Shown: positions 8,948 to 28,971 of the stretch, piece by piece
Numbering within the stretch: position 1 is the stretch's first letter
Layout: every line of letters begins with the position of its first letter
Source of the DNA: Nannocystis bainbridge
GTDB taxonomy: Bacteria; Myxococcota_A; Polyangia; Nannocystales; Nannocystaceae
Direction of reading: 5' to 3'
Assembly: GCF_028368995.1 (NCBI RefSeq)
Contig: NZ_JAQNDL010000002.1
Coordinates: 801,724-865,723 of the forward strand
DNA length: 64,000 nt
Notes under the pieces: generated by a model
What the model saw: the letters and a program-made list of their open reading frames with translations, nothing else
Told to the model about the DNA's origin: nothing
Databases searched by the model: none
Made by a program: the position numbers and the translations under genes

Positions 8948-9093
8948 AGACATGTCTGTAGGGACATGCCGTAAAGGACATGCACTGGGAAGCGCGGTCG
9001 TCCGCTCAAGCGCGGCAGTCCGTCGGGCCGCTCGCCCGGCCGACGCTACCTGATGACCTGCGCTTTTCGACCTGGCCTGGGGGACATGTCCCT
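8948..9093. repeat. GGACATGTCC-family repeat units (4) downstream of the 3' end of the outer-membrane-protein gene
   Basis: gagacatgtctg, gggacatgcc, aggacatgca and gggggacatgtccc lie just before the stop of the 9106-10578 (-) gene. Confidence 0.8.
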
Positions 9094-10662: not shown

Positions 10663-11316
10663 ATGCGCAGGATGTCCCGATCGCTCTCCGTCCTCGGTCT
10701 GTCGCTGCTGGTCCCGCTCGTGGGGGGGTGCCCCGACTCCGAGGCCAAGTTCGAGGAGTTCCTCGACAACACCAAGGACGACCGCGACTTCATGCCGCCG
10801 CCGCCCCCGGACGTGATGCCCGCCCAGGCCGACATCAGCGGCGATTTCCTGCTGGCAGTGTCGACCGTCATCTCGCCCGATCTGCCGCTGCAGTTCATCG
10901 CCACCAATACGCTGACGGTCGACGACATGGGCAACACGCTGCTCGCGGCCTGCCTGCAGCCGCTGAGCCTCATGGCGGGCAAGGTCAACGCGCCGCGCGA
11001 GCCCATCGGCGATCCGCTGTGTTACACGGACATCCCGATCGTCGACGGCAAGTTCGACATCGACGCCGGCCTGGTGAAGGTGACCGGCATGGCCAACCCG
11101 GTGACCGGCGCCGACATCGAGGCGACGCTGAGGATGATCGCCACCATCATCGACGAGGGGTTCTACTGCGGTGACATCGAGGGCGATCTTTCCGTGCCCT
11201 TCGCGCTCGACCTGAAAGGCTCGACCTTCGCGGCCGTGCGCATCGAGGATCCCGCGATGCTGCCGCTCGACGTGACCGTGAACTGCAAGGGCGATACGTT
11301 CCGCGACAAGGAATGA
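10663..11316 (+). CDS. Lipoprotein, hypothetical
   Basis: MRRMSRSLSVLGLSLLVPLVGGC lipobox, then a globular sequence with a PPPPP stretch. It is the tail of the long antisense track ORF 8980..11316. Confidence 0.6.
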   Translation: MRRMSRSLSVLGLSLLVPLVGGCPDSEAKFEEFLDNTKDDRDFMPPPPPDVMPAQADISGDFLLAVSTVISPDLPLQFIATNTLTVDDMGNTLLAACLQPLSLMAGKVNAPREPIGDPLCYTDIPIVDGKFDIDAGLVKVTGMANPVTGADIEATLRMIATIIDEGFYCGDIEGDLSVPFALDLKGSTFAAVRIEDPAMLPLDVTVNCKGDTFRDKE

Positions 11317-11403
11317 GCGCGATGCCGCGCAGAATCACGCAACATCACGCGTGATGGCACTGGTTTTTCGCCGGCCCGAGCCCGATCATCGCCAACCCCC
11401 ACG

Positions 11404-12735
11404 ATGACGACGACGGTCTCGCCCCCGACGCCCGCCGGGCAGTGGTCCAAGGTCCGCAACGAGCTGCAACAGCTCTGGCACACGGAGCTGCGCGACTCGA
11501 ACATCCGCGCTGCGTACGTCGTGTGCGCGATGACCGGAACGGCGTACGGGATGGTGACGGCGGTCGTGGCCGTGTACCTGAACAAGGAGCGCGGGATCGA
11601 CGAGCTCACGATCGGTGAGCTGGCGATCTTCTTCTCGCTCGGCATCGCGGCGTTCAGCGTGCCGATGGGGCTGCTGATCAAGCGGCTGTCGCCGCGCACG
11701 ATGCTTTCGGCGGCGCTGCTGGTGTACGCGGGGGCGACGGCGATCTTCCCGTTCTTGCTGACCTTCGGCGGGCTGGCGACGGCGCGTGGGATCGACGGGG
11801 CGTTCTCGGTCGGCGTGTGGGTCAGCCTCGAGACGATCCTGCTGATGCGCACGACGACGGCGCACCGCGGGCTCATCACCAGCCTCTACACCATCTCGAT
11901 GGCGACCGGTTACGGCATCGGCGCGGTGTTCGGCTGGGCGGTGATGCTGCTCTACCCGATGCAGATGGTGTTCGTGGCCGCCGGGCTGTTCGCGTCGCTG
12001 GCGGCGCTCATCGCCTTCGTGTTCCTCGACCGCGACATCCAGCCGATCACGGGCAGCGACCACGGGGGCGACCACGGCCACCCGCCGGCCGAGCAGCCGA
12101 GCAAGCCCGCGGTCGAAGAGGCCCGGCCGCCGATCCTCTCGCTGTACTGGAAGATCAAGACCGCCTGCATCCCGACGTTCTGTTACGGCTACTTCCAGGC
12201 GTCGCTGGTGCTGTTCCTGCCGCTGTTCCTGATCGAGGTCCGGCACGTGCCGAAAGAGGACACCAGCCTGCTGGTGGCGAGCTTCTCGATCGGCATGGCT
12301 GCGAGCGTGGTGTTCGTCGGCCGCCTCGGCGATCGCTACGGTCACCTGAAGACGGTTCGCTCGCTGGTGGCGCTCGGCGTGGTGCTGACGGCGTCGCTGG
12401 TCTACCTGCCGACGTTCGGGCTGGTGGCGGTGGCGGTGCTGCTGGCGGGCGGATCGCTGGCGCCGATCTGGCCGATGAGCCTGGCGTTGCAGAGCCTCAT
12501 CGTCGACCCGCGCGACTTCAGCCGCAGCAACGCGCTGCTGAACGGCTCGTACGGGCTCGGCACGCTGGCGGGGCCGCTGATGTCGGGCTACCTATTCAAG
12601 CACTACGGCGGCGAGACGATGTTCCTCCACATCGCGGTGCTGTGGGCGCTGGCGCTCGTGGCGACGCTGGCGTTCCGCCGCGACGACCCGAGCTTCCGCG
12701 CGATCGCCCACGCCCGCGCACGCGCGGCGGCCTGA
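11404..12735 (+). CDS. MFS transporter
   Basis: About 12 predicted TM helices. The MFS signature-like loops GRLGDRYGHLKT and LIKRLSPR are present. Length is 443 aa. Confidence 0.85.
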   Translation: MTTTVSPPTPAGQWSKVRNELQQLWHTELRDSNIRAAYVVCAMTGTAYGMVTAVVAVYLNKERGIDELTIGELAIFFSLGIAAFSVPMGLLIKRLSPRTMLSAALLVYAGATAIFPFLLTFGGLATARGIDGAFSVGVWVSLETILLMRTTTAHRGLITSLYTISMATGYGIGAVFGWAVMLLYPMQMVFVAAGLFASLAALIAFVFLDRDIQPITGSDHGGDHGHPPAEQPSKPAVEEARPPILSLYWKIKTACIPTFCYGYFQASLVLFLPLFLIEVRHVPKEDTSLLVASFSIGMAASVVFVGRLGDRYGHLKTVRSLVALGVVLTASLVYLPTFGLVAVAVLLAGGSLAPIWPMSLALQSLIVDPRDFSRSNALLNGSYGLGTLAGPLMSGYLFKHYGGETMFLHIAVLWALALVATLAFRRDDPSFRAIAHARARAAA

Positions 12736-12751
12736 GGCTATCCTGGCAGGC

Positions 12752-13798
12752 ATGGGCCTGCTCCACCGTCTTTACGCTCGCGCCGCGCCCGAAGTGTGGG
12801 AGACCGAGACGCGGCTGCTGCACGCGCTCCGCCTCGTGCGAAGGCCGGTCGCGGTGCAGTGGATCGCGACGGCGATGTGCGACCTCCGCTGTCCGCACTG
12901 CTACTCCGGCGCGGGCAAGCGGGCCGAAGGCGAGCTGACGACGCAGGAGGCCATCCGCCTGGTGGTCGACGAGCTGGTGGCGCTCGGCAAGCCGACGTTC
13001 GTGATCGCCGGCGGCGAGCTGCTGCTGCGCCGCGACATCGCCGAGATCGTGGCGCACGCGCGGGCGCAGGGGCTCGAGTGGGCCATGCACACGCACGGCG
13101 GACATGTCCCCAAGTTCAGGTCGATGTTCGAGCGCCACCCGCCGACGCTGGCGGCGATCAGCCTCGACGGCGAGGCGCGGCAGCACGACCTGTTCCGCGG
13201 GCGTCAGGGCAGCCACGCGGCGGCGCTGGCGGCCATCCGCACGCTCAAGGAGTGCGGCTGCCCGGAGGTGGTGGCGGGCACGACGGTGACGCGCGAGAAC
13301 GCCGACCGCCTGGCCGACCTGTTCCCGCTCGTCGCCGCCTCGGGGGCCGACTCGTGGGGGCTGCACCTGTTCGCGCCCGAGGGCCGCGGGGCCGAGCACA
13401 CGGCGCTGTGCCCGACACCGGAGCAGCTGCAGCGGGTGGCGGCGTTCGCCCGCCGCAAGCGCGGGCTGTTCCACGTCGAGCTGTGCAACGAGTGGGGCAG
13501 CGCCGGCGCCGACGATCGCTTCTATCGCGACCAGCCGTTCCTGTGCGGCGCGGGCCGGATCTCCTGCGTCATCGGGGCGACCGGCGAGGTGCTGCCGTGC
13601 ACCACCACCGACCTGCGCGAGTCGGAGGGGAACGTGCGCGACCGGCCGCTGCGCGACATCTGGACCCGCGGCTTCCGGCGCTTCCGCAGCGCCGGCCACG
13701 GCGAGTGCTCCGACGGCCACGAGTGCTGGCTGCAGGCCCGCAACGGCAACCCGTGCCGCGAGCAGGCGTTCGGGGCCTGCCGCAAGGAGGCCGTGTGA
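12752..13798 (+). CDS. Radical SAM enzyme with a C-terminal SPASM-type auxiliary Fe-S cluster domain
   Basis: CDLRCPHC (CX3CX2C) near the N-terminus, a GGE-like SAM motif (VIAGGELL), and a C-terminal 7-Cys region (CGAGRISCVIGATGEVLPCT...CSDGHECWLQARNGNPCREQAFGAC). It starts 16 nt after the MFS gene. Confidence 0.85.
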   Translation: MGLLHRLYARAAPEVWETETRLLHALRLVRRPVAVQWIATAMCDLRCPHCYSGAGKRAEGELTTQEAIRLVVDELVALGKPTFVIAGGELLLRRDIAEIVAHARAQGLEWAMHTHGGHVPKFRSMFERHPPTLAAISLDGEARQHDLFRGRQGSHAAALAAIRTLKECGCPEVVAGTTVTRENADRLADLFPLVAASGADSWGLHLFAPEGRGAEHTALCPTPEQLQRVAAFARRKRGLFHVELCNEWGSAGADDRFYRDQPFLCGAGRISCVIGATGEVLPCTTTDLRESEGNVRDRPLRDIWTRGFRRFRSAGHGECSDGHECWLQARNGNPCREQAFGACRKEAV

Positions 13799-15117
13799 GG
13801 CGCTGGTGGCTCGATCTGGGCGGGTTCGCGGTCGCGCTGGCGCTGGCGGCGGCGGTGGTGCTGCGCTGGCGCAGCGGCCAGGTGGCGCTGCTCTCGAGCA
13901 CGGCGGCGCCGGCGATCCGGCTGCTGGCGCTGCTGGTGGTGTTCGTCCAGGGCTGCGCCGACCGGCTGCGCGGGCGCGAGGAGCCGGGCGGGCAGGCGGC
14001 CGAGCGGCGGCCGGCGGCGGGCTCCGAGGACATGTCGGATGGGGCAGGTCCTTCGGGACAGGGCTCCAGGGGCATGTCCAAAGAGGCAGGCGAGGAGCCC
14101 GGGCCGGCGCCGCAGCTCGAGGCGGACGCGTTCCCGCTGGCCGACGAGGCGGCGCTGGGCCGCTGGGCCCGGCTGGTCGCCGGCGACGGGTTCGACGCGG
14201 GGCCGGGCAAGCGGCTGGCGCTGGCGCTGGTGCCGATGCCCGAGGCGACGCCGGCGCAGGACCCGAGGTGGCTGCAGGTCGCGTCCGCGCTCGAGGCGCT
14301 GGCCGACGCGGCGGGCGGCGCGGAGGGCGAGGCGTTCCGTACGCGCTGGCGAGCTCACGTGGAGATTCGCAAGGCTGGCGGCAGCGAGACGATCGCGGAG
14401 CTGCAGGCGCTGCTGACGACGATGGAGGCGCTGCCGCTGCTGCACGCGGGGCTGGCCGGATACGTGTGGCGTCGGGCGGCGCCGCTGCCGGCGGGGGCGC
14501 GCGAGCGGGCCGAGCTGCTGGGGCGGCTCGAGCGGCACCTGCGGGCCTGCGAGGCGCTGCTGAAGGGGCAGTTCGAGACGGGGCCGATCGAGTTCACGGC
14601 GTGGCGCAGCAAGGCGGCGCCGCCGGTCGGACATTCAGGGCTGCGGGTGCCGAAGGGGTTGCTCGGGGCGGCGAGGAGCCACTATCCGGGCAGCGACGCG
14701 GGCACGTGGGCGAGCGAGGCGACGCTGACGCTGACGGCCACGGACGGCGAGGTGACGCTGCTGCGCGCCGGCCGGGCCGAGCGTCTGCAGCCGGGGCAGC
14801 GGTTCGAGCTGCGGCGGCTCGACGCGCTGTGGGCCGGGCGGCCGGCGAAGCTGCGCCACGATGAACTCGGGGACATGTCCCTCGGGGCAGGCGCTGTCGC
14901 GTCGGCGTGGGACGTCGGGCCGCGGCTGACGCCGGCCGGGCGCGAGCAGGTGCGGGCGCAGGTGGCGGCGGCCCAGCGCGGCGAGGCGCAGGCGCTCGAG
15001 CGGCTGCGAGCGATCCTGCCGGCGGCCCACCTCGAGATCCGGCGAGCGCTGGCCGAGAAGCCGCAGGCACCAGGGTCGCCGGGGCTGCGCACGCTGCTCG
15101 AGCTGTTCGACGGGTGA
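13796..15117 (+). CDS. Hypothetical membrane-anchored protein, translationally coupled to the radical SAM gene
   Basis: The GTG start overlaps the radical SAM stop (GTGA). An N-terminal TM segment (WWLDLGGFAVALALAAAVVLRW) is followed by an Ala/Leu/Arg-rich, probably helical domain. Two repeat-family unit clusters (14016-14068, 14868-14893) lie in-frame in low-GC3 linker stretches. Confidence 0.5.
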
Positions 15118-15168
15118 GGCGAGCCGGCCATCGCCGGGAGCGAGCGCGACGACGCGTGGGGGCGGCAC

Positions 15169-15265
15169 GCTACATGTCCCTCAGGGCATGGCGTCAGGGT
15201 CATGTCGCAAGCGACATGTCGCAGAGGACATGCCTAAACGGACATGTCGGGGGCGACATGTCCCG
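15169..15265. repeat. Tandem array of 7 GGACATGTCC-family units between convergent genes
   Basis: gctacatgtccc, agggcatggc, gggtcatgtcgc, gcgacatgtcgc, gaggacatgcc, cggacatgtcgg and gcgacatgtccc lie between the stop of 13796-15117 (+) and the stop of purT (-). Confidence 0.85.
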
Positions 15266-15274
15266 CAGCGGCGG

Positions 15275-16471
15275 TCAGCCGGCGTCGACGACCACGCGGA
15301 TCTCGGCGGCGGCCGCCTCGGCGCGGGCGCGGCACTCGGCGACGTCGTCGCCGTAGGCCAGGACGACGCCCATGCGCCGGTACTTGCGGGTGTCCGGCTT
15401 GCTGAACAGGCGGATCTTGGTGCGCGGGTCGGCGAGGGCCTTGCCGACGCCGGTAAAGCGCGGGTTGGTGCCGGGGCGGTCGGCGAGGACCACGGCGGAG
15501 GCCCCGGGCGCGCGGAGGATGACCTCGCCGATCGGGAGGCCGAGGATCGCGCGCACGTGCAGCTCGAACTCGCTCTGGTCCTGCGTGATCATGGTGACCA
15601 TGCCGGTGTCGTGCGGGCGCGGGCTGACCTCGCTGAAGATGACCTCGTCGCCGACGACGAACAGCTCGACGCCGAACAGGCCGGCGCCGCCGAGCGCCTC
15701 GGTGACCGCGGCGGCGATCTCCTGGGCCCGCGCGAGGGCCTTCGGGGCCATCGCGTGCGGCTGCCACGACTCCATGTAGTCGCCGCGCTCCTGGCGGTGG
15801 CCGATCGGCGGGCAGAACAGGGTGCCCTCGTGCCGGGTGCGGATCGTCAGCAGCGTGATCTCGTAGTCGAAGGGGACGAAGCCCTCGACGATGACGCGGG
15901 CCGAGCGACCACGGGCGCCCGACAGCGCGTACTCCCAGGCGGTGGCGACGTCGGCGGCGGTGCGCACGGTGCTCTGACCCTTGCCCGAGCTCGACATCAC
16001 CGGCTTGATGACGCACGGGAGGCCGAGGCGCTCGACGGCGGCTTCGACCTCTTTGTGGGTGTCGGCGAAGGCGTAGGGGCTGGTCGGCAGGCCGAGCGTC
16101 TCGGCGGCGAGGCGGCGGATGCCCTCGCGGTCCATGGTGAGCCGGGCGGCGCGCGCGGTCGGGATGACGCTCCAGCCCTCGCTCTCGAGCTCGACGAGCG
16201 CGTCGGTGGCGATGGCCTCGATCTCGGGGACGATGTAGTGGGGCTTCTCGCGGGCGACGACGGCCCGCACGGCGTCGCGGTCCTGCATGTCGAACACGTG
16301 GCTGCGGTGGGCGACCTGCATCGCCGGGGCGTTGGCGTAGCGATCGCAAGCGACGACCTCGACGCCGAGGCGCATGGCTTCGATCGCAACCTCGCGGCCG
16401 AGTTCGCCCGAGCCGAGCAGGAGCAGCCGCGTGGACGAAGGAGAGAGAGGAGTGCCGAGCGTGAGATCCAT
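15275..16471 (-). CDS. purT: Formate-dependent phosphoribosylglycinamide formyltransferase (GAR transformylase 2)
   Basis: [45 protein letters not shown] and the ATP-grasp body ([24 protein letters not shown]) are colinear with PurT. The track ORF begins 40 codons upstream in low-complexity sequence. Confidence 0.93.
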
Positions 16472-16636: not shown

Positions 16637-19600
16637 TCAGGTGGGCGCGCTGCCGTTGAACATGGCGCTCCACTGCGCGGGGCGGAGGATCGCCTGCGAC
16701 TCGAGGACCTGATCGGCCTGGGCGATCAGCGGCGCGCCGGTGGGGCCGAGCAGCTCCCCGCGGCGGCGGCGGGCGCAGGCGGCGTGCAGGCGCATGTCGG
16801 CGGTGTCGAAGCTGGCGGCGGCGGCCTCGAGGCGGACCAGCGCCTGCGGGATGTCGCCGTTCTGCGTGGCGATGCCGGCCCGGATCAGCGCGGCCATGGC
16901 GACCGAGTCGTGGCGCAGCGCGCGGTCCTCCTCGAGCTGGGCGGCGTCGCGTTCGGCGGCGGCGAGCAACACGCCGGCGTTGTGCGGCTGCTCGCGGGCG
17001 GCGGCGACGGCGGCGAGGCCCCGCGCGTGGAGGAAGAGGATCCGCTGGCCCTGCCAGCCGAGGATGTACGAGTTCTCGACGGCGACCCAGTTCTCGGCGA
17101 GGCGCTGCCACGCGGACCCGCCCTGGCCCTGGTAGAGGTCGCACGAGGTCTCGAGCAGCAGCGCGAGCATGTGCTGGAAGTGGAAGCCGTCCTTCGACCA
17201 GCGACGCATCGCCCCGCGCACGCGATCGCGGGCGCTGGTGATGTCGTCGGCGGCGAGCAGGGCATAGGCGCTGTAGAGGGCCGACCAGACCTCGCCGCAA
17301 AGATCGCCGGCGTCCTCGGCCTCGCGCAGCCAGGCGTGGGCGCGGTGGCCGAGCTCGGACAGCTCGCCGAGCATGAACAGCCCGCCCATCGAGCTCATGC
17401 GGGCGAGGTCGAGCTCCCAGCCGACGCCGACGCAGCGGTCGAGCAGGACCTGGGCGCCCTGCTCGTTGTGCTCGAGCGCGCGGCGCCAGCGGCCGAGCGA
17501 GACGTCGGCGATGGCGTCGATGATCTCGCACAGGGCCACGAGGCGCGCGTCCGTGAGCTGGTCGGCGAGCTTGCGCGCCTCCTTGAGGAGGGTGGTGCCG
17601 CGGCCGACGGCGTTGGCGGTGCCGCGGCTCATCACCATGGCGCCGACGCCGGCGAGGGCGCGGGCGATCCGGTGGGGCTCACCTGTCTGAAGGGCCAGGA
17701 GCAGGCCGCGCTGGAAGAAGCTGTAGCCGCGGATCGGGTCGACGAAGGCGAGGCCGACGGCCGCCGACAGGCACACGTCGAGGCGCAGCAGGTCGGCCGG
17801 CGGGACCTGCTCCTCGCGCACGCCGACGAAGCCGAGGCCGCGCAAGCTGAGCTGCGTCGAGCGGGTGATGATCGACATGTTGGCGCGGCCGGGCGTGGCC
17901 GGGTAACCGAGGTCGACCTCGACGAGCGCGGGCCGCAGCATCCGCACGCCCTGATCGATGTTGCCGCTGACGAGGAACTGCTCGCCGGCGCGGCGGCGCA
18001 GCTCGAGCGACTCGGCCGCGGTGGCGCCCTCGGCGGCGCTGGCGTAGACGGGGGCGGCCTCGGCGCTGCGACCGGCGAGCGCGAGCGCGTCGGCGCGGCG
18101 GCGCAGCAAGGCCCGGCGCTCGTCGTCGGCCAGGTCATCGGCCCACGCGAGCGCGCGGCCGTACAGCTGGGCGGCGCGCTGGAACGCGAGCGTGGCGGCG
18201 GCTCGCTCGGCGGCGGCGACGGCGGCGGTGTGGGCCTCCTTCAGGGCGCCGGCGGCGTGGAGGTGGTGCGCCAACAGCTCGGGATCGTCGGCGGCCTGGG
18301 CGAGCGCGTCGGCGAGGGTGCGGTGCAGCTGCGCCAGTCGATCGCCGCCGAGCTGCGCGAGCACGGTGTCACGGATCCGGTCGTGGTAGCACTCGATGGT
18401 GTCGCCGCTGCGGCTGGCGAGGGTGCGCAGCAGGTGCTGCGCCTGCAGCTCGCCGAGGACCGCGCGATCGGTGACGCCCGAGGCGGTGAAGGCGAGGCTC
18501 GGCGGGATCGGCCGCCCGGCGACGGCGACGATCTCGAGCAAGCTGCGACCGGCCGCGCGCAAGCCGGCGAGGCGCGTGCGCACGACGGCGTCGAGCGAGA
18601 CCTCGGCCGGCGCGGAGCCGCGATGACCGGCGATGTGGCGCGCGAGCTCCTCGACGAACAGCGGGTTGCCGCCCGACTCGGCGGCGATCCGGCGCGCCTC
18701 GGCGCGGGCGCTGTCGCTGTCGCGACCGAGCCGGGACAGCGCGAGCTCCTCGGCCTGATCGGGCGACAGCGGCTCGACCAGGAGGTCGCGCACCAGCGCC
18801 TTGAGCTCGGGCCGCGCGCCGAGCCGCCGCAGCTCGCGGAGCATCGGCGCGTCGTCCTCGTCGATGCGGTAGGAGCCGATGAACAGCATCGCCGGCGGAT
18901 CGGGGGGCGACAGCAGCTCGACGAGCAGGCGCGCGCTGTCCTCGTCGCCCCACTGCAGGTCGGCGATGCGCAGCACCAGCGGGCGGCGATCGGCGATCCG
19001 TGCCAGCAGCTCCTTGAGCCCGCGGAAGGCGCGACGACGAGCCTCCTGCGGGTCGGGGGCGACGAAGTTGCGCTGCGGCAGGTCGGCGACCACGGCCGCG
19101 CGCGCGAGCACGGGGAACAGCCGCGTGAGCTCGTGGATCTCGCGCGGCAACAGGGCCGCGGCCTCCTCGGGCGGGAGGTGGCGGAGGTGCTGCGCGAGCG
19201 CGTCGAGCACGCTGTCGAACGCCTTGTAGGGCACGCTCTCGCGCTCGTAGCAGCGGCCCTGCAGGACAAAGGCGCGGTCGGTGCGGCGCAGCTCGGCGAT
19301 GAAGCGATCGATGACGGCGGTCTTGCCGATGCCCGAGCGGCCGCGGACGTACACGCACACCGGCGAGCCGGCGACCGCGAGCTGGAAGGCGTCGCGCATG
19401 GCCGACAGCAGGTCGTCGCGGCCGACGAAGCGGGCGCCGGAGTCGGTCGGGCCGAGCGGGGCCTCGCCGAGCGCCTCGCGGATGTCGGCGCCGCCGAGCC
19501 GCGCGGCCGGGTCGCGCTGCAGGAGGCCCATGCACAGCGCGGCCAGCTCGAGGTCGACGTCGGGCGCGAGCTGCTGCGGCGGGGTCGGGTCCTCGTGCTG

Positions 19601-20323
19601 CTTGGCGTGCAGGATCTTCAGCGGCGGGCCGCTGAAGGGCAGGCGGCCGGTGAGCGCCTCGTAGAGCATGACGCCGATGGCGTACCAGTCGCTCGCGGAC
19701 GAAGCCGGGTTGCCGGCGGCTTGCTCGGGGGCCATCGTCGCCGGGGTGCCGAGCAGGCCGTCCTCGCCGCCCTCGCCGACGTCGTCGGCGGCGAGGCCGA
19801 AGTCGAGGATGGCGACGCGACCGTCGCCGCTGACCAGCACGTTCGACGACTTGAGGTCGCGGTGCAGCTTGCCGGCGGCGTGCAGGGCGCTGACGCCGGC
19901 GGCGAGCTGCAGCAGGGCCGGGCGCATGCGCTCGGGCGGCGGCGCTGCATCTGGCCTTTCGGACATGCCCTCACGGACATAGTCGACGAAGCTGACGCCG
20001 TCGACGAACTCCATGGTGATGAACCACTCGTCGTCGTGCGAGATCAGCTGATGGAGGCTGACGAGGTTCGGGTGCGACAGGCCGGCGGCGCTGCGGAACT
20101 CGTTCTTGAGGCGGAACAGCGCGCCGGGGTCGAGCTGGTGCAGGGTCTTGACCGCGACGGTGCGGCCGCTGTCGCGCTCGATCGCGGCGTAGACGATACC
20201 CATGCTGCCGGAGCCGACCCGTCGCACCAGCTCGTAGCGGCCGAGCGTACGCGGCAGGATGTCCTCAGGGACAGGTGGCGTCACCGGCAGCGAGGCGCGG
20301 GCCTGGGGCTCGTCGGACTTCAA
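16637..20323 (-). CDS. Ser/Thr protein kinase fused to an AAA/NB-ARC-like ATPase and a C-terminal TPR-like helical domain (STAND-type signalling protein)
   Basis: Kinase subdomains LGRYELVRRVGSGSMGIVYAA...AVK, HRDLKSSNVLV, DFGLA and GTPATMAPE. Walker A GRSGIGKT and Walker B LVLRIADLQWGDE. A long C-terminal helical-repeat region follows. No in-frame ATG lies near the kinase domain, so the start is probably TTG at about 20323. A repeat-family unit pair (19960-19984) encodes an insertion, GMSERPDAAPPPERM, inside the kinase domain. Confidence 0.85.
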   Translation of the reverse strand: MKSDEPQARASLPVTPPVPEDILPRTLGRYELVRRVGSGSMGIVYAAIERDSGRTVAVKTLHQLDPGALFRLKNEFRSAAGLSHPNLVSLHQLISHDDEWFITMEFVDGVSFVDYVREGMSERPDAAPPPERMRPALLQLAAGVSALHAAGKLHRDLKSSNVLVSGDGRVAILDFGLAADDVGEGGEDGLLGTPATMAPEQAAGNPASSASDWYAIGVMLYEALTGRLPFSGPPLKILHAKQHEDPTPPQQLAPDVDLELAALCMGLLQRDPAARLGGADIREALGEAPLGPTDSGARFVGRDDLLSAMRDAFQLAVAGSPVCVYVRGRSGIGKTAVIDRFIAELRRTDRAFVLQGRCYERESVPYKAFDSVLDALAQHLRHLPPEEAAALLPREIHELTRLFPVLARAAVVADLPQRNFVAPDPQEARRRAFRGLKELLARIADRRPLVLRIADLQWGDEDSARLLVELLSPPDPPAMLFIGSYRIDEDDAPMLRELRRLGARPELKALVRDLLVEPLSPDQAEELALSRLGRDSDSARAEARRIAAESGGNPLFVEELARHIAGHRGSAPAEVSLDAVVRTRLAGLRAAGRSLLEIVAVAGRPIPPSLAFTASGVTDRAVLGELQAQHLLRTLASRSGDTIECYHDRIRDTVLAQLGGDRLAQLHRTLADALAQAADDPELLAHHLHAAGALKEAHTAAVAAAERAAATLAFQRAAQLYGRALAWADDLADDERRALLRRRADALALAGRSAEAAPVYASAAEGATAAESLELRRRAGEQFLVSGNIDQGVRMLRPALVEVDLGYPATPGRANMSIITRSTQLSLRGLGFVGVREEQVPPADLLRLDVCLSAAVGLAFVDPIRGYSFFQRGLLLALQTGEPHRIARALAGVGAMVMSRGTANAVGRGTTLLKEARKLADQLTDARLVALCEIIDAIADVSLGRWRRALEHNEQGAQVLLDRCVGVGWELDLARMSSMGGLFMLGELSELGHRAHAWLREAEDAGDLCGEVWSALYSAYALLAADDITSARDRVRGAMRRWSKDGFHFQHMLALLLETSCDLYQGQGGSAWQRLAENWVAVENSYILGWQGQRILFLHARGLAAVAAAREQPHNAGVLLAAAERDAAQLEEDRALRHDSVAMAALIRAGIATQNGDIPQALVRLEAAAASFDTADMRLHAACARRRRGELLGPTGAPLIAQADQVLESQAILRPAQWSAMFNGSAPT

Positions 20324-20337
20324 GGGCAGAGTATGGA

Positions 20338-21492
20338 TTATGCCACGCGGGCGGGCCCGAGGTCGCCGTCCGTAGGCAAGGCCCCGGGCGGGACGCCGAG
20401 GCCGGGGCCGCAAAGCCGCGGTAGTTCGGGCGCGAGCCGCACCTGGCTCCCCGGCGGCATCGGATCGTCCCGCGTGAGCATGTGGGCGTCGAGGTCGGCC
20501 TCGTCGGCGAGGCGGGCCAGGGCGGCGCCAGCCGCGAGCCCGACGCGGGTCTCGATCATGCAGCCGACGAGCACCCGCAGGCCGGCCTCCCGGGCCGCGG
20601 CGATCGTCGCCAGCGCCGGCGAGATCCCGCCGCACTTCATCAACTTGACGTTGATCCCGGCGACCCGGCCGCGCAGGGCCGCCACGTCGCCCGGCCCCTG
20701 CACGTCCTCGTCGGCGTAGATCGGCAGGGGGATGTCGCGCGCGAGCGCCGCGAGGAGGTCAGGCCGACCCGCAGGCAGCGGCTGCTCGAGCTGCTCGACC
20801 CCGAGATCGACGAGCAGCGGGAGCAGGGCGCGCACGTCGTCCGCGGTCCAGCCGCCGTTGGCGTCGATCCGCAGGCGCGCCCGCGGGGCGGCGGCGGCGA
20901 CCGCTCGCAGCGCCGCACGGTCGAAATCGCGGCCCTTGCCGAGCTTGATCTTGAGCACCGGCAGGTGCGCGGCCGCGGCCGCGCGGGCGGCCATCGCGTC
21001 GAGCTCGTCGAGCGCGATCGTGTAAGAGGTGACGGTCGCGCCCGATGTGGCCGAAAGGACATGTCGTTCGAGACCTGCCCGATCGAGCACGTCGGGATCG
21101 GCCAGGAGGTCGGGCAGGGGGCGGTCCGCGGCGCGGGCGGCCGCGTCCCACAGGGCGGTGTCGACGGCGCAGCGGGCGGCGGAGTGGTCGGGGGCGAGCT
21201 CGCGCATGCGCGCGCCGGCGGCCGCGATCGCGCGCGGGTCGAGGAGGATCGCCGGCGCCAGCTCGGCCGCGATCGCGGCCGCCAGCGGCGCAGCGGCGGC
21301 CGCCGACTGACCGAGGTAGCGCACGGGCGAGGCCTCGCCGAGGCCGCGGCGATCGGGGCCTTCGGGCAAGCGGCATCCGGGACCCTCCGGGTCGAGGCGC
21401 ACGAGCAAGCTCGGTAGTTCGCTCACGGTGCCGCGCGACAGGCCGAACGGATGGCGCAGGCGGAGCGTGACGAGGGCGGCGCGCAGGTCCAT
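20338..21492 (-). CDS. Enolase-superfamily enzyme (mandelate racemase/muconate lactonizing family; dipeptide epimerase or o-succinylbenzoate synthase-like)
   Basis: KIKLGKG (catalytic Lys strand), RIDANGGW, EQP, YADEDV and KLMKCGG metal and base motifs appear in the expected order. Confidence 0.8.
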   Translation of the reverse strand: MDLRAALVTLRLRHPFGLSRGTVSELPSLLVRLDPEGPGCRLPEGPDRRGLGEASPVRYLGQSAAAAAPLAAAIAAELAPAILLDPRAIAAAGARMRELAPDHSAARCAVDTALWDAAARAADRPLPDLLADPDVLDRAGLERHVLSATSGATVTSYTIALDELDAMAARAAAAAHLPVLKIKLGKGRDFDRAALRAVAAAAPRARLRIDANGGWTADDVRALLPLLVDLGVEQLEQPLPAGRPDLLAALARDIPLPIYADEDVQGPGDVAALRGRVAGINVKLMKCGGISPALATIAAAREAGLRVLVGCMIETRVGLAAGAALARLADEADLDAHMLTRDDPMPPGSQVRLAPELPRLCGPGLGVPPGALPTDGDLGPARVA

Positions 21493-21542
21493 GCGGCTCC
21501 ACGGTGTACCACCGCCGACGCGGCATTGTATGGTGGCCCCGC

Positions 21543-23042
21543 ATGTCCGTTCGCCGCCCCGGAGGCTCGTCCAGCGCCGCGCTCGAGCGGCTGTTCGACC
21601 GCGACTCGCCGCTCTCCTATGAGGAGCGGCTCGAGGCCCTGATCAAGGCGGCGCTGCCGGACCGGATCCAGCGGCTGTCGTTCGGCGCCGAGCTGGCGCG
21701 CGGAGGCATGGGCGCGGTGCGGCTGGCGTTCGACGAGGTGCTGCAGCGGCGGATGGCCGCCAAGACCATGCACGCCAAGACCTACGAGCACCTGATCCTG
21801 GTGCACGGGTTCTTGCGCGAGGCCCAGGTGACCGGCCAGCTCGACCACCCCAACATCGTGCCGATCCACGAGCTCGGGCGCGACGAGCAGGGTCAGCTGT
21901 ACTTCACGATGAAGCTGGTCGAGGGCCAGAGCCTCAAGGCGCTGATCGGCGGCGAGGCGGCGACCGACCACGAGCGGCTGTTCCACCGCCTCGAGATCTT
22001 CGTCAAGGTGTGCGACGCGCTGTCGTTCGCGCACAGCCGCGGGGTGATCCACTGCGACATCAAGTCGGCCAACGTGATGGTCGGCGCCTACGGCCAGGTC
22101 TACCTGATGGACTGGGGCGGGGCGCAGCTGCTGCCGCTTCGGTCCGGTGACGACGAGGCCCAGTGGGTCCGCGACGCCCTGCCGCCGCTGCCGCCGTCGG
22201 AGACCGACGGGCTGGTGTTCGGCACGCCTTCGTACATGTCGCCCGAGCAGGCCAACAGCCAGCCGCTCGACGAGCGCGCCGACGTGTTCTCGATGGGGGC
22301 GCTGCTCTACGAGATGATGGCGGGCCGGCCGCCGTACACCGCGCGCACCGCCATGGACGCGCTGATCATGGCCCGCGAGGCCAAGTTCGCCCCGCCCGAC
22401 ACACACGTGTCGGTGCCGTTCCCGCGCGAGCTGGTGCGCATCGTGACCCGGGCGCTGCGCCGCGATCCCGACGACCGCTACCCGAGCGTGGCGGCGCTGC
22501 AGGCCGACATCGTCCGGCTGCTGCGCGGCAGCGGCAGCTTCCAGACGGTCCGCTTCGCCGCCGGCGAGCACGTGATCCGCGAGGGCGAGATCGGCGACGC
22601 GGCCTACATCGTCCTGGCCGGCAGGCTCGAGGTCTACAAGATCGAGGCCGGGCACCACGTGTCGCTGCGCTGGCTCGGGCCCGGCGACGTGTTCGGCGAG
22701 ACCTCGATCTTCGCGGCGTCACGCCGGACCGCCAGCGTGCTGGTGGTCGAGGAGGCGACGCTGACGAAGATCACCAGCGACCTGATCGAGGAGGAGCTGA
22801 CCTCGATGAAGCCGTGGATGGGCGCTTTCGTGCGCACCCTGGCGGCCCGCTTCGCCGGCGTCGAGGGCCGCACGCCGCGGGCCGAGGGCGCGCCGCGCTC
22901 GGCCCCGCCGCGCCCGGCCGTGACGGTCAGCGCGCCGACGACCTCGGGCGGCGAGAGCGTGATCATCGACATCGACGAGCCGCTCGACGACGCGCTCGAC
23001 GGCAGCGACATGCACGCGACCGTGGTGGCCCGCCGCCGCTGA
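21543..23042 (+). CDS. Ser/Thr protein kinase with a C-terminal cyclic-nucleotide-binding (cNMP) domain
   Basis: Kinase motifs GGMGAVRLAF...AAK, HCDIKSANVMV, DWGGA and GTPSYMSPE. C-terminal cNMP-binding hallmarks are GDVFGETSIF and RRTASV (FGE...RTA). The start may instead be GTG at 21504. Confidence 0.85.
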   Translation: MSVRRPGGSSSAALERLFDRDSPLSYEERLEALIKAALPDRIQRLSFGAELARGGMGAVRLAFDEVLQRRMAAKTMHAKTYEHLILVHGFLREAQVTGQLDHPNIVPIHELGRDEQGQLYFTMKLVEGQSLKALIGGEAATDHERLFHRLEIFVKVCDALSFAHSRGVIHCDIKSANVMVGAYGQVYLMDWGGAQLLPLRSGDDEAQWVRDALPPLPPSETDGLVFGTPSYMSPEQANSQPLDERADVFSMGALLYEMMAGRPPYTARTAMDALIMAREAKFAPPDTHVSVPFPRELVRIVTRALRRDPDDRYPSVAALQADIVRLLRGSGSFQTVRFAAGEHVIREGEIGDAAYIVLAGRLEVYKIEAGHHVSLRWLGPGDVFGETSIFAASRRTASVLVVEEATLTKITSDLIEEELTSMKPWMGAFVRTLAARFAGVEGRTPRAEGAPRSAPPRPAVTVSAPTTSGGESVIIDIDEPLDDALDGSDMHATVVARRR

Positions 23043-23057
23043 GCGGAGGCGGTGCTC

Positions 23058-23140
23058 GAGGACATGTCCCTGGGGGCATGTCTGCAGCGACATGGTCGAT
23101 GTGTCATGTGCGTCACGACATGTCTGAACGGGCATGTCTT
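23058..23140. repeat. Tandem array of 6 GGACATGTCC-family units between convergent genes
   Basis: gaggacatgtccc, ggggcatgtctg, gcgacatggtc, gtgtcatgtgc, cacgacatgtctg and gggcatgtctt lie between the kinase-cNMP gene (+) and the cyclase gene (-). Confidence 0.85.
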
Positions 23141-23209
23141 TCAAGCCATCGTGAAACGCGGCGCCCGTGCCGTGGACGCGGTCGCCCCTCCGGGCAGCGC
23201 GTCTTGGCC

Positions 23210-24436
23210 TCACGCGCGCGCGGGCAGGGCGTCGAGCAGCTCGGTCAGCGCGCGCGGCAGGGCAGTGAAGCGGACCACCGCGCGGCCGGGGCTGGCGGCG
23301 ACGACCTTGGCGTAGGCGTCGACGCCGGGCAGGGCCGCGAGCACCAGCTTGAGGTCGGCGCGCAGCGGCAGCGGGGCGGACACCTGCAGCTCGGCGTTGT
23401 GGCGCTCGTCGTGGGCGACCAGCAGGGCCGGGACCTCCTGACCGCCGGTGTCCTTGCCCTCGAGCGCGGTGAACACCAGCGGCTGCGGCTGGGCCAGGAT
23501 CCGCCACTCGGCTGTCTCTTCGGCCATGTGGATGGCGAACGGGCCGTCGACGCCGGTGACGTCGTGGATCGTGATCGGCTCGCGCACGCCCTTGGGCCGG
23601 ACCTCGAAGCAGCCGCGGGTGCGCAGGCGATCGCCGAGGGCCCGCGCGGCGGACTCCGAGATCAGCACCTGACCGCCGACGGTGTAGCTCTCGATGCGCG
23701 ACGTCAGGTTGACGTGGCGGCCGACCACGCCGTACTTGGCGCGGCGGTTGGAGCCGATGTTGCCGACCACGACCTCGCCGGTGTGGACGCCGATGCCCAT
23801 CTCGAGCGCGGGCAGGCCGTGCGCGGCCAGGGCGGCGTTGACCTCGCCCATGGCCCGCTGCATGGCGATCGCGCAGGCGACCGCGCGCTCGGGGTGGTCG
23901 TCCTGCGGCACCGGGGCGCCGAACACCGCGAGGATGGCGTCGCCGATGAACTCGTTGATCGAGCCGCGGTACTCGCCGATCACGTCGGCCATGGCGCCGA
24001 GGTAGATGTTGAGGATCGCCACCACCTGCTCGGGGCCGAGGCCCTCGCACAGGGTCGAGAAGCCGCGCAGGTCGGAGATCAGGATCGTCAGCGTGCGCCG
24101 CTCGCCGCCGAGCTGGCGGCCCTCGGGCGAGGCGAGCAGCGTGTTGACGACCTCGTCGGTGACGTGGCGGCCGAACATCTGGCGGATGAAGGTGTTGCGC
24201 AGCTCGAGCTCGACCACCAGGGCCTCGACCTGCTCGATCTTGACGGCCAGCTGCTCCTCGATCTCGTTGGCGTGCTCGAGCGTCGAGTCGTGCAGCAGCA
24301 CCAGGTCGTCGTGCTCGGCCTGCAGCGCGGCCGCGGCGGCCACGAACGCGGCGCGGGCGGCCGGGTCGGCCAGGAGCTCGGCCGCGGCCTCGGGGTCGGC
24401 GAGGGCTCGCCGCCAGCGCGCATCGTCCGTGAGCAT
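23210..24436 (-). CDS. Class III nucleotidyl (adenylate/guanylate) cyclase with an N-terminal ~190 aa regulatory/helical domain
   Basis: Class III cyclase catalytic motifs: LTILISDLRGFSTL (metal-binding Asp), EFIGDAILAVFGAP, GIGVHTGEVVVGNIGS and GRHVNLTSRIES (NxxxR). It is the last gene of the SiaABC-like operon. Confidence 0.88.
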   Translation of the reverse strand: MLTDDARWRRALADPEAAAELLADPAARAAFVAAAAALQAEHDDLVLLHDSTLEHANEIEEQLAVKIEQVEALVVELELRNTFIRQMFGRHVTDEVVNTLLASPEGRQLGGERRTLTILISDLRGFSTLCEGLGPEQVVAILNIYLGAMADVIGEYRGSINEFIGDAILAVFGAPVPQDDHPERAVACAIAMQRAMGEVNAALAAHGLPALEMGIGVHTGEVVVGNIGSNRRAKYGVVGRHVNLTSRIESYTVGGQVLISESAARALGDRLRTRGCFEVRPKGVREPITIHDVTGVDGPFAIHMAEETAEWRILAQPQPLVFTALEGKDTGGQEVPALLVAHDERHNAELQVSAPLPLRADLKLVLAALPGVDAYAKVVAASPGRAVVRFTALPRALTELLDALPARA

Positions 24437-24449
24437 GCGGGCGGCCGGC

Positions 24450-24824
24450 TCAGTCGAGCGCGATCACGATCGCGGGCAGGAACTTCTTGAGGTTGGGCAG
24501 CGACTTGCCCTGCCACGGGATGGTCGACGAGCCGTGGACCTTGATCTCCGTCTCGCCCTTCTTGCGCGCGGCGATGGCGAACTTGTAGAGCATGTTGATG
24601 CCCGAGCTGTTGAGGAACTGCAGCTCGGTCATGCGCAGGGCGAGCGTCGGGCTGGCCTGGAGCACGCCGTCGAGCAGGTCCTCGATCGGCTTGTACTCGC
24701 TGGTGCTGAGGCGGAGCACGCCCTCGAAGTGGAGCGTGCGCGCGGGCAGGTCGAACCACACGCGGTAGCCGGGGCCTTTGATGTCGGTTTCCGACCCGGT
24801 GGGTCGCGTTGTCGTGTCCGTCAT
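24450..24824 (-). CDS. SiaC-like DUF1987-family partner-switch protein (putative phospho-acceptor)
   Basis: 124 aa, matching DUF1987 size. The central segment LALRMTELQFLNSSGINMLYKFAIAA resembles the SiaC core. The 4-nt overlap with the upstream kinase-like gene and a position between a HATPase protein and a cyclase match siaABCD synteny. Confidence 0.55.
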   Translation of the reverse strand: MTDTTTRPTGSETDIKGPGYRVWFDLPARTLHFEGVLRLSTSEYKPIEDLLDGVLQASPTLALRMTELQFLNSSGINMLYKFAIAARKKGETEIKVHGSSTIPWQGKSLPNLKKFLPAIVIALD

Positions 24825-25384
24825 GCCGATTTCACCTGTAGGCGGGCGGTGGTCTTGAGGAGCGCGTTGTCAGGATTGCCAGGCGCGGGGTCGAAGCGCC
24901 AGCCGAGCCGGGCCTTGTAGTCCGAGAGCATGGTGAGAAATCCCAGGCCCGAGGTCGTGAGCTCGGGGTTGGCGGCGTTCTCTTCGACGCGCTGCATCAG
25001 CAGGTCGGCGGGATCGCCGTCGAGCAGCTCGGCGAACTTGACCCGCAGGCCGTCGACCGTGGTGGTGGCGATCTGGTTGCTGACGACGACCACGAACTCG
25101 CCGGTCTCGACGCCGGCCTCGATGACGACGGTGCCGCCGGCGCAGAACTTGACCGCGTTCTCGATCAGCTCGTTGAGCACGTAGCCGACGCTGCCGATGA
25201 AGTCGCGCCGCTCGGCCTCCTCGGTCAGCTCGCTCTCGCTGACCTCGACGAAGTACTCGGCGAAGAAGTCGGCCGCGACGCTGCACTGGTTCCATCTGAC
25301 CGGGAACGCCCCCGGGTAGAACACGAGCGTGACGCGCGGTCCTGCGTCCGTGGGCTCCCTGTACTCGCCGATGATGCCGTCCAT
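24821..25384 (-). CDS. SiaB-like GHKL/HATPase_c_2 anti-sigma-factor-type Ser/Thr kinase
   Basis: N-box-like ELIENAVKF, G-box-like TSGLGFL and about 187 aa. It sits between PP2C-phosphatase and DUF1987 genes. Confidence 0.65.
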   Translation of the reverse strand: MDGIIGEYREPTDAGPRVTLVFYPGAFPVRWNQCSVAADFFAEYFVEVSESELTEEAERRDFIGSVGYVLNELIENAVKFCAGGTVVIEAGVETGEFVVVVSNQIATTTVDGLRVKFAELLDGDPADLLMQRVEENAANPELTTSGLGFLTMLSDYKARLGWRFDPAPGNPDNALLKTTARLQVKSA

Positions 25385-25407
25385 ACTCTCCGTCCGCCTC
25401 GTGCGCC

Positions 25408-27768: not shown

Positions 27769-27798
27769 GCGGTCGAGGACGAGGCGAGACGAGGCGCG

Positions 27799-28971
27799 TC
27801 AGCGTCCGGGTTTGCGGCCGGAGGCGACGTAGATCGGCCAGGTGGCGAAGCCGCGGCGGCTGCGGATCGCGTACACGTGATCGCGGAAGCCCATGCGCAG
27901 GCGCTCGACGACCTCGGGCGGCTGCTGCGTGGCGGTCGACAGCTCGCCGGTGACGTACTCCTCCCAGCTCTCGATCACCCGCGCGAAGTCGTCGATCGCG
28001 GTGTTGTTGTTGGTGATCGGGATCTGCTCCATGCGCACGTCCTCGAAGCCCATGTCGGTGAGCAGCGAGAACATCTTCGGCCCGAAGTTCATGTCCATGC
28101 CGAGGCTCTGGGCGATCTTCACGGCCTGCTGGTAGGTCCACGTGACCGACTCGTGGCGCGGGTAGCCGTAGTTGTGCGCCGACATCTCGTTGGTCAGGTA
28201 GACGCGACCGCCGGGCTTACAGATCCGCAGCAGCTCGCGCAGGATGCTCGACGGATCGTTGAAGATCTGCAGGGCCAGGCGCGAGGTGACGAAGTCGAAG
28301 CTGTTCGACGGCAAGAACAGGTGGGTCGCGTCGCCGAACTGGTACTCGATGTCGGTGATGCCGAAGTCGCGGGCGATCTGCTGCGCGTACTGCAAGAACG
28401 GGCGCGAGTGGTCGACGCCGACGATGTAGGTGGGCTCGAACTCCTTGTAGACGAGCACCGCGAAGTCGCCGATCCCGCAGCAGATGTCGGCGATCCGCAT
28501 GTGCTTGCCGAGGCCGTGCTGGCGCAGCAGCTCGCGCTCGTGCGACCACACGATGTTGGTCTGGGTCCGCAGCACCGGCACCAGCTGATCGTTCTCGATC
28601 ACGCCCTGGCCGGGATAAAACGCCTTGTCGTACTGCTCGACGATGGTGTTGCCGAAGCGCGCGCCGAGGAAGCCGAACCGCAGCGGCGCCCACGGGACCA
28701 CGCTCGAGATGACGAGCTTGAGCTTGAGCGCGGGGTGACGCTCGGCGCAGGCGGCGATGAAGCGCGCGAGCTCGAGGAAGCCGGCGTGGTTGAGGTAACG
28801 CAGGCGCTTGAAGTTGAGGTAGAGGACGCCTCGCACGGCGTCGGCGGCGTGGTCGAGGCGGGCCCGCACCGGCGCGAAGTCCTCGGCGCCGGCGGGGCGC
28901 AGAGAGCCCTCGAGCGCGACCTCCTGGTCGTTCTCGCTGAAGCGGATCGTGAACGGTCGCTCGTGCTCCAT
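27799..28971 (-). CDS. Fusion of a DUF1987/SiaC-like N-terminal domain with a class I SAM-dependent methyltransferase
   Basis: N-terminal ~100 aa (VLYLNFKRLRYLNHAGFLELARFIAAC) parallels the SiaC-like protein. Methyltransferase motif I is ADICCGIGDFAVL and the post-I/II region is CKPGGRVYLTNE. Confidence 0.65.
   Translation of the reverse strand: MEHERPFTIRFSENDQEVALEGSLRPAGAEDFAPVRARLDHAADAVRGVLYLNFKRLRYLNHAGFLELARFIAACAERHPALKLKLVISSVVPWAPLRFGFLGARFGNTIVEQYDKAFYPGQGVIENDQLVPVLRTQTNIVWSHERELLRQHGLGKHMRIADICCGIGDFAVLVYKEFEPTYIVGVDHSRPFLQYAQQIARDFGITDIEYQFGDATHLFLPSNSFDFVTSRLALQIFNDPSSILRELLRICKPGGRVYLTNEMSAHNYGYPRHESVTWTYQQAVKIAQSLGMDMNFGPKMFSLLTDMGFEDVRMEQIPITNNNTAIDDFARVIESWEEYVTGELSTATQQPPEVVERLRMGFRDHVYAIRSRRGFATWPIYVASGRKPGR

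Follow-up and report, generated by a model that had tools for sequence, protein, structure and literature searches.

This work concerns two adjacent genes in a 64,000-nucleotide stretch of DNA from Nannocystis bainbridge (contig NZ_JAQNDL010000002.1, positions 801,724 to 865,723), referred to here as the window, which has a G+C content of about 72%. The first gene (12752–13798, plus strand) encodes a cytoplasmic radical S-adenosylmethionine (rSAM) enzyme of 348 residues with Pfam Radical_SAM and SPASM domains. The second (13795–15117, plus strand) encodes a 440-residue protein of an unnamed family, here called the partner. The enzyme and the partner form an obligate, stoichiometric partnership, in which the body of the partner is probably exported. 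The functional unit is a two-gene module, which in some lineages is a single fused gene. It is not a three-gene operon that includes the major facilitator superfamily (MFS) transporter encoded upstream (11404–12735, plus strand; 443 residues; Pfam MFS_1, E 2.9e-44), as an initial annotation of the locus had proposed. What that annotation observed was largely right; its three-gene interpretation was not, since the transporter is absent from every context other than Nannocystis-like loci.

Co-occurrence, coupling and fusion of the two genes

The rSAM and the partner co-occur in 100% of cases, in both directions. Scanning species-representative genomes for the partner motif gave nine loci, all nine of which have the rSAM gene directly upstream. 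Metagenomes scanned with rSAM-specific patterns gave 47 loci, and a partner on the same strand is present in 34/34 of those with at least 900 nt of downstream sequence. Contig look-ups of distant rSAM homologues gave an open reading frame (ORF) of 340–440 residues without a Pfam match directly downstream in 7/7 cases. The neighbouring genes are completely different, and the downstream proteins are homologous to the partner of N. bainbridge. Such strict co-occurrence of an enzyme gene and a second gene is what is expected of a maturase with a dedicated substrate.

The two genes are also closely joined. In N. bainbridge the GTG start codon of the partner overlaps the TGA stop codon of the rSAM by 4 nt (GTGA). 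Among the junctions of 65 loci there are 43 overlaps of the type ATGA or GTGA, 12 in-frame fusions and 8 short gaps, and a further 2 junctions run off the end of the contig. Fused proteins of 687–817 residues are also found among the database representatives of the partner. A neighbour-joining tree of the rSAM domain places the fusions in at least five clades, and most of them have separately encoded enzymes as their nearest neighbours. Fusion or fission has therefore happened repeatedly. Comparative genomics could hardly give the pairing stronger support, and a tighter link between two genes is hard to conceive. One further protein is worth recording here. In P0021 (448 residues; L025:1284-2618) the rSAM domain runs on in frame into the partner's C-terminal third alone (profile positions 259–411); the protein is encoded on a 2.9-kb metagenome contig and may reflect an internal deletion or a chimera of the assembly.

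No third gene is conserved. All ORFs around the 14 genome and look-up loci were clustered, and only the pair and generic kinases recur; conserved small ORFs, proteases and ABC exporters are absent. The module is found in Myxococcota (Nannocystaceae, Polyangia and metagenome-assembled genomes labelled 'Myxococcales') and in Planctomycetota (a Pirellulales metagenome-assembled genome, and contigs with planctomycete-specific PSD/PSCyt neighbours). Literature searches gave no description of an rSAM–partner system. In one Polyangia lineage, and not at the other loci, a gene for an extracytoplasmic function (ECF) sigma-70 factor lies directly upstream of the pair (L001:7032-7664 and L002:917-1549), with Ser/Thr kinases near. 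A type-1 partner homologue, P0170 (NQU25814.1), is labelled 'Candidatus Nealsonbacteria' by NCBI, an improbable source for a type-1 protein when the family is one of Myxococcota and Planctomycetota, and is probably from a mis-binned contig.

The layout of the three genes in N. bainbridge is as first described: re-reading of the ORFs, together with Pfam, gives the same three ORFs, the same gap of 16 nt between the stop codon of the transporter and the ATG of the rSAM, and the same GTGA overlap. It is on co-occurrence that the transporter and the pair part company. The rSAM and the partner are always adjacent, and the transporter stands beside them at just three of the 65 loci, all of them Nannocystis-like (L006, L007 and L022). 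A single three-component system, which was the earlier reading, would agree with the common strand, the 16-nt gap, the 4-nt overlap, and the order FadL–lipoprotein–MFS–rSAM–partner–PurT, which three Nannocystis genomes share. Little follows, however, from conservation inside a single genus, and the MFS orthologue of Nannocystis punicea FL3 has a frame-shifting 1-nt deletion in a G-run (L007:4585, about window position 12378), while its rSAM and partner are intact. Either the gene is a pseudogene there, or the deletion is an error of sequencing. We regard the three-component system as improbable: the part of the earlier reading that concerns the transporter fails because the gene does not co-occur with the pair outside Nannocystis-like loci. 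The transporter is a genus-specific neighbour outside the conserved module, and it should not serve to infer the function of the pair.

The enzyme and its partner

The enzyme is a member of the radical SAM superfamily PF04055, with a score of 61.9 bits (cut-off 29.5). The CX3CX2C motif of the SAM-cleaving [4Fe-4S] cluster is at 12878–12901 (plus strand; C43, C47 and C50, in the sequence CDLRCPHC), and its three Cys are invariant in 132/132 sequences. The SPASM profile PF13186 also matches, with 33.2 bits (cut-off 21.5), and this match is weak or absent in several homologues. The C-terminal domain had been described as a full 7-Cys SPASM domain. This is correct by count alone (C265, C272, C283, C319, C325, C335 and C343), and the spacing is non-canonical. 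The first half of the motif, C265-X12-G278-X4-C283, is present, while the second half is CX5CX9CX7C against the canonical CX2CX5CX3C, so that the two-cluster, seven-Cys motif (CX9-15GX4C...CX2CX5CX3C...C) is not matched. Moreover, across 132 family members the only invariant Cys of this domain are C265, C283 and C325; C272 is at 85% and C335 at 86%, and C319 and C343 are not conserved. By this pattern of conservation the region at 13544–13780 (plus strand; C265-X12-G-X4-C283 and then C325-WLQxRxGxx-C335) is a degenerate SPASM/twitch-like region, which probably binds just one conserved auxiliary cluster, a twitch-type one. The closest relatives in the PDB are SkfB (E 1.1e-16), which we take to be a twitch-type enzyme, and PqqE (E 3.8e-9). 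Several of the fused forms (P0142, P0165, P0209 and L010/L014) have lost the equivalent of C335, which is the fourth auxiliary-cluster Cys. In most of the fusions that lost it, P0209 excepted, the downstream hydrophobic helix ends in a Cys (L-x-G/A-C), with no strict correlation established between the two.

The N-terminus of the enzyme is a conserved extension of 34 residues (12752–12853, plus strand; MGxLHR...W..E.RLL), with M1, R6, W16, E19 and R21–L23 conserved in the alignment. It is too short for the recognition element (RRE) of enzymes that mature peptides made by ribosomes and modified after translation (RiPPs). The rSAM core begins at about residue 32–36, which corresponds to residue 108 of SkfB, 99 of StsB and 114 of AlbA. 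Because only 34 residues precede the core, and the alignments start after the RRE of about 100 residues in SkfB, StsB and AlbA, the enzyme has no RRE, in agreement with what was first noted.

Comparison with NCBIfam profiles places the enzyme outside every curated cofactor or RiPP family. The best scores are all far below their cut-offs: AhbD (TIGR04545), 131 bits against 500; TIGR04053, 122 against 395; NirJ2, 120 against 500; TIGR04133, 113 against 425; MftC (TIGR03962), 112 against 265; NirJ (TIGR04051), 101 against 515; and PqqE (TIGR02109), 86 against 381. The WgkB model gives 52 bits against 650. Matches below cut-off also include StsB, SkfB, and the GDL-motif and nif11 maturases, and neither anSME nor QhpD is among the best 25. 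Firm clustering with a known cofactor family, which would have undermined the initial annotation, is thus not seen. The enzyme is a member of an uncurated family within the SPASM/twitch group. Several of its homologues, including fusions, carry the IMG label 'AdoMet-dependent heme synthase', which is an unsupported over-annotation and is corrected here. A lipid-modifying rSAM of the Tes/GDGT-MAS type was also considered and rejected; the PDB match is only E 4e-4, on the core, and the body of the partner would be extracytoplasmic. The family is highly conserved: there are more than 120 homologue clusters at 60–98% identity, identity across phyla is 62–72%, and in the 132 sequences conservation reaches 95% or more at 105 of 345 positions.

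The partner belongs to a family of 206 members, found at E ≤1e-3 in a profile search of 1.84 billion representatives. No match was found for it in Pfam or NCBIfam, in Pfam searches with 73 diverse members, or with a sequence profile against the PDB. Weak matches of the transmembrane region to DUF4131/TgpA_N, and a chance match to apolipoprotein, were dismissed. Family members are 340–500 residues long. Conservation was calculated over 151 representatives clustered at no more than 50% identity, which share 25–40% identity; in 133 of these the body has either no Cys or one. AlphaFold2 gives a confident prediction for the N. bainbridge protein, with a predicted local distance difference test (pLDDT) score above 90 for residues 108–440. 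The predicted fold has a helical domain (residues 118–262), a loop (264–288), an eight-stranded β domain (311–370) and four C-terminal helices. The earlier description of an Ala/Leu/Arg-rich helical body is corrected accordingly.

The predicted loop between helix 235–262 and helix 289–299 contains a near-invariant stretch, P-I-E-F-T-A-W270-R-S272-K273-A-A-P-P-V-G-H (14584–14634, plus strand). The family consensus is P-(V/I)-x-F-x-(A/P)-W-x-S-K-A-(G/A)-P-P-x-G-(W/Y), which is about 17 contiguous residues. Conservation is 97% for W270, 96% for K273, 84% for S272, 81% for A274 and 85% for P276. The loop is a candidate modification or functional site, and the partner peptide covering FTAWRSKAAPPVGH would hold the candidate W-x-S-K modification site. 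Further conserved positions of the body are in D301-A-G-T-W305 and R341-L342-D343 (14695–14823, plus strand; W305 97%, R341 98%, L342 96%, D343 95%), and R250 is 94% conserved. The conserved polar residues are spread over the whole body, and include E211, R226, R244, H248, R250, W305, R324 and R341/D343.

The N-terminus of the partner had been annotated as a single transmembrane helix. There are in fact two hydrophobic helices. Helix 1 (residues 6–23; 13810–13863, plus strand) is seen in the hydropathy profile and in a survey of architectures. It is followed by a conserved basic juxtamembrane segment (residues 24–42) and a hydrophobic helix 2 (residues 43–54), which ends in a lipobox-like VQGC; these two elements (13864–13956, plus strand) resemble a signal peptide. 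A disordered linker rich in Pro, Gly and acidic residues comes next (residues 55–107; 13957–14115, plus strand), with pLDDT below 50 for residues 60–107. Where the region aligns, R24, G28, P39, R42, A45 and V49 are conserved, and such conservation of the basic segment is unusual for a plain signal peptide.

Three architectures are found in the family. Type 1, which includes Nannocystis, has a short tail, a strongly hydrophobic helix, a basic loop, a hydrophobic stretch of 11–15 residues and an acidic, Pro-rich linker. Type 2 does not have helix 1, which is confined to type 1, and starts at the basic segment, followed by a short hydrophobic stretch that often ends in G-C or AxA, in the manner of a Sec or lipoprotein signal. 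This was verified on the DNA for L001, L005 (where a stop codon bounds the gene), L015 and L018. In the fusions, the rSAM is followed by a linker, the basic segment, a short hydrophobic stretch (often L-x-G/A-C), a further linker and the body. In about half of the members, helix 2 is followed by a lipobox-like Cys or an AxA site. In the 73 partners with two hydrophobic segments, the basic loop has on average 5.9 Lys or Arg, compared to 1.2 in the N-terminal tail. Topology was assigned from hydropathy and charge counts using the positive-inside rule. These counts give signal-peptide- or lipobox-like N-termini and a positive-inside charge bias, in proteins that also carry the conserved 17-residue loop. 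We infer that in all three architectures the basic segment is in the cytoplasm and the body of about 330 residues is outside. The body is most probably extracytoplasmic, and either membrane-tethered or lipidated.

Function of the pair and its genomic setting

Few rSAM/SPASM enzymes have a known protein, as opposed to peptide, substrate; examples are anSME and QhpD. Most SPASM enzymes mature peptides or proteins (PMC3531188). The reading that we favour, with less than even confidence, is that the rSAM is a cytoplasmic maturase of a dedicated exported partner, acting before export. The initial annotation had put forward the downstream membrane protein as a possible target. This proposal is strengthened by strict co-occurrence, translational coupling and repeated gene fusion, and also by the near-invariant linear motif, and it is as a hypothesis that we develop it.

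According to this hypothesis, translation of the partner would be coupled to the rSAM gene, and the enzyme, with its canonical SAM-binding cluster and one putative auxiliary Fe-S cluster of the degenerate SPASM/twitch-like region, would serve as a dedicated and roughly stoichiometric maturase. It would dock on the 'leader-like' basic segment at the N-terminus of the partner, and would abstract a hydrogen atom in the (A/P)-W-x-S-K-A-x-P-P loop while the chain is still in the cytoplasm. The modified partner would then be exported. Because the body most probably lies outside the cytoplasm, any modification by the rSAM would have to precede export. For this group of enzymes acting on a W/K motif, the chemistry with the best precedent would be a C–C crosslink between Trp270 and Lys273. 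Further observations counted in favour of this sequence of events were the conservation of W270 and K273 at 96–97% despite divergence of the partner to 25–35% identity; the lack of a conserved third gene; the agreement of the three architectures on a basic segment inside and a body outside; and the failure to find an RRE or a small precursor ORF.

Several points weigh against the partner being a substrate. Its modification is a proposal, drawn from sequence and from analogy, and the topology is read from hydropathy and charge counts. The conserved polar residues across the body would also fit a site of ligand binding or catalysis. Conservation is far higher in the rSAM than in the partner, an unusual pattern among protein maturases. 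The strongly hydrophobic helix 1 would favour co-translational insertion, and so leave little time for modification in the cytoplasm. For the natural fusion P0142, an AlphaFold2 model based on a paired alignment of 11 fusions has no confident docking between the two parts (predicted TM-score 0.61, linker pLDDT below 50). Finally, the basic segment of type-1 and fused forms probably stays attached, which would fit a lasting transmembrane complex equally well. Such a complex is possible, with a somewhat lower probability than a maturase. In it the partner would be a membrane-anchored subunit with a domain in the periplasm, which anchors, regulates or senses, and the rSAM would act on another protein, a lipid or a metabolite encoded elsewhere. 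The cytoplasmic basic segment, conserved in all three architectures, the spread of polar residues and the disparity in conservation between the two proteins all agree with this. Coupling in a 1:1 ratio and fusion are typical of the subunits of a complex, and the order enzyme, transmembrane segment, periplasmic domain in the fusions is like that of anti-sigma factors. However, for the half or so of members with a lipobox-like Cys or AxA site, cleavage at that site would remove the cytoplasmic tail, and therefore leave nothing for the rSAM to hold. In addition, no substrate or pathway gene is conserved in the contexts of the 14 loci clustered, and literature searches gave no precedent for an rSAM enzyme under a periplasmic sensor domain.

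The other alternatives concern products that are not the partner. The rSAM might make or tailor a small molecule or cofactor, which is exported (in Nannocystis by the MFS transporter, 16 nt upstream) and then bound or used by the periplasmic partner. A parallel would be heme d1 biogenesis, with NirJ and a periplasmic lipoprotein, NirF. The best NCBIfam similarities are indeed to the tetrapyrrole-modifying AhbD and NirJ2 and to TIGR04053, and a very high conservation of the rSAM would be in keeping with such a role. On one planctomycete contig a gene for HemC (porphobilinogen deaminase; L017:9486-10556) follows 168 nt after the pair, and it is the only tetrapyrrole-related neighbour in any context. 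The similarity scores are nevertheless far below cut-off, and the matches of AhbD and TIGR04053 cover only the generic rSAM core (about residues 30–232). No other biosynthetic gene or transporter is conserved beside the pair, and the Nannocystis transporter is genus-specific, and frameshifted in N. punicea. Fusion of an enzyme to the receiver of its own exported product is also hard to rationalise, and we consider this scheme unlikely. Least probable of all is a RiPP pathway with a small precursor that is unannotated or encoded elsewhere, and with the 440-residue protein as an accessory (chaperone, protease or immunity protein). SPASM/twitch enzymes are frequently RiPP maturases, and the NCBIfam matches include StsB, SkfB and the GDL-motif and nif11 maturases. 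Yet a search for ORFs of 12–90 residues on both strands of 11250–15300, scored for ribosome-binding sites, found none in the intergenic gaps of 87, 16 and 157 nt, and matched only within known genes, in frame or antisense. The remark that no precursor-like small ORF is visible is thereby confirmed. A conserved small ORF, protease or ABC exporter is likewise missing from the 14 loci, the enzyme has no RRE, and its conservation is much above that usual for RiPP maturases.

Returning to the maturase hypothesis, we further suggest, more speculatively, that the W-x-S-K loop carries a new post-translational modification, in which a Trp–Lys crosslink forms a staple or a protein-derived cofactor, and that the module is self-contained, with a single-use substrate, and specific to Myxococcota and Planctomycetota. 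This is doubtful as it stands, and if true it would define a previously unknown class of modified periplasmic protein. The rSAM clade defined by these results is uncurated. The partner family (about 200 representative clusters) is unnamed, lies outside Pfam and the NCBIfam models and has no relative in the PDB, with W270/K273 as a precise candidate site. If the partner is the substrate, the system would represent a new protein modification and a rare enzyme–substrate fusion across a membrane; if it is not, it would represent a new membrane-spanning rSAM complex.

The flanking genes of the N. bainbridge locus, which are an arginase-family gene, a FadL-type porin, a small lipoprotein-like ORF, PurT, and Ser/Thr kinases and other signalling proteins, offer no hint of function. 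Pfam searches of the neighbours in the window found no sulfatase, quinoprotein or heme genes near the pair, and neither the partner nor the neighbours have a sulfatase domain; on sulfatases this agrees with the initial annotation. A dense block of signalling genes lies downstream (16637–28971), and includes a 1332-residue Ser/Thr kinase with an AAA_16 domain, a kinase with a cNMP-binding domain, an adenylate/guanylate cyclase, a Cache-HAMP-SpoIIE phosphatase and a methyltransferase. A known defence system was rejected because PADLOC gave only weak matches of the viperin type, from the rSAM core. An Rfam scan of the whole window found no RNA family, and a promoter and terminator scan gave nothing useful. 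An 8-bp palindrome, GACATGTC, occurs 18 times in the window compared to 0.73 expected, a number reached in 0/100 shuffles. It clusters in intergenic gaps (15213–15262, 8949–9090 and 23061–23124), with single copies at 13101, 14029 and 14872, and the convergent gap between the partner and purT has three exact copies together with degenerate ones. It may be a repetitive extragenic palindromic (REP)-like element or the operator of a regulator.

Comparison with known systems

The RRE-dependent RiPP maturases (AlbA, SkfB, StsB, PqqE with PqqD, and MftC with MftB) are distinguished from the present enzyme by their RRE and by a small precursor gene, neither of which is found here. AhbD and NirJ provide the best-scoring NCBIfam models, but the scores are 101–131 bits against cut-offs of 500–650, AhbD covers only the generic core (residues 35–218), and the pair has no other ahb or nir gene beside it. 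TIGR04133, which we take to be an rSAM/SPASM family paired with a putative lipoprotein of an uncharacterised system, is also among the top matches, over residues 34–321. The presumed pairing would resemble the one here, where the partner is lipoprotein-like. With 113 bits against a cut-off of 425 the enzyme is not a member of that family, and the partner matches no NCBIfam model.

The anSME enzymes are cytoplasmic rSAM/SPASM maturases without an RRE, which read a short linear motif of large exported sulfatases before these are exported. In such a comparison, the conserved loop of the partner would stand in for the sulfatase motif C/S-x-P-x-R. There are clear differences. The partner has no sulfatase domain, anSME is absent from the 25 best NCBIfam matches, and in the partner loop the Ser is only 84% conserved, with Trp and Lys at 96–97%. 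One anSME serves many sulfatases, whereas the relation between rSAM and partner is strictly 1:1 and often a fusion. Furthermore, anSME has two auxiliary clusters and a full 7-Cys motif, while here 3–5 Cys are conserved.

The closest precedent is QhpD/QhpC, in which the gene of an rSAM/SPASM-type enzyme lies beside that of a dedicated protein substrate. QhpD and QhpC form a stable 1:1 complex, dependent on an N-terminal leader and single-turnover, in the cytoplasm before export to the periplasm (PMC7876137). QhpC differs from the partner in being a Cys-rich small subunit of about 110 residues with Cys–Asp/Glu thioethers, compared to 340–500 residues, a Sec-like signal and a body with 0–1 Cys. 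That system also needs a protease (QhpE), an exporter (QhpF) and a flavoprotein (QhpG), and no such accessory genes are conserved in the 14 loci clustered.

For the chemistry, the best parallels are the maturases StrB (streptide), DarE (darobactin), WgkB and WprB, which join Trp to a Lys or Arg a few residues apart (PMC9055067; PMC11851443). These act on short RiPP precursors with leaders and give secreted products, whereas the candidate here is a folded protein of more than 300 residues. They are nevertheless SPASM-group rSAM enzymes that work on W/K motifs, and the partner has a near-invariant W-x-S-K. DarE makes a Lys–Trp C–C crosslink, and its product contains a crosslinked W-S-K (PMC9055067).

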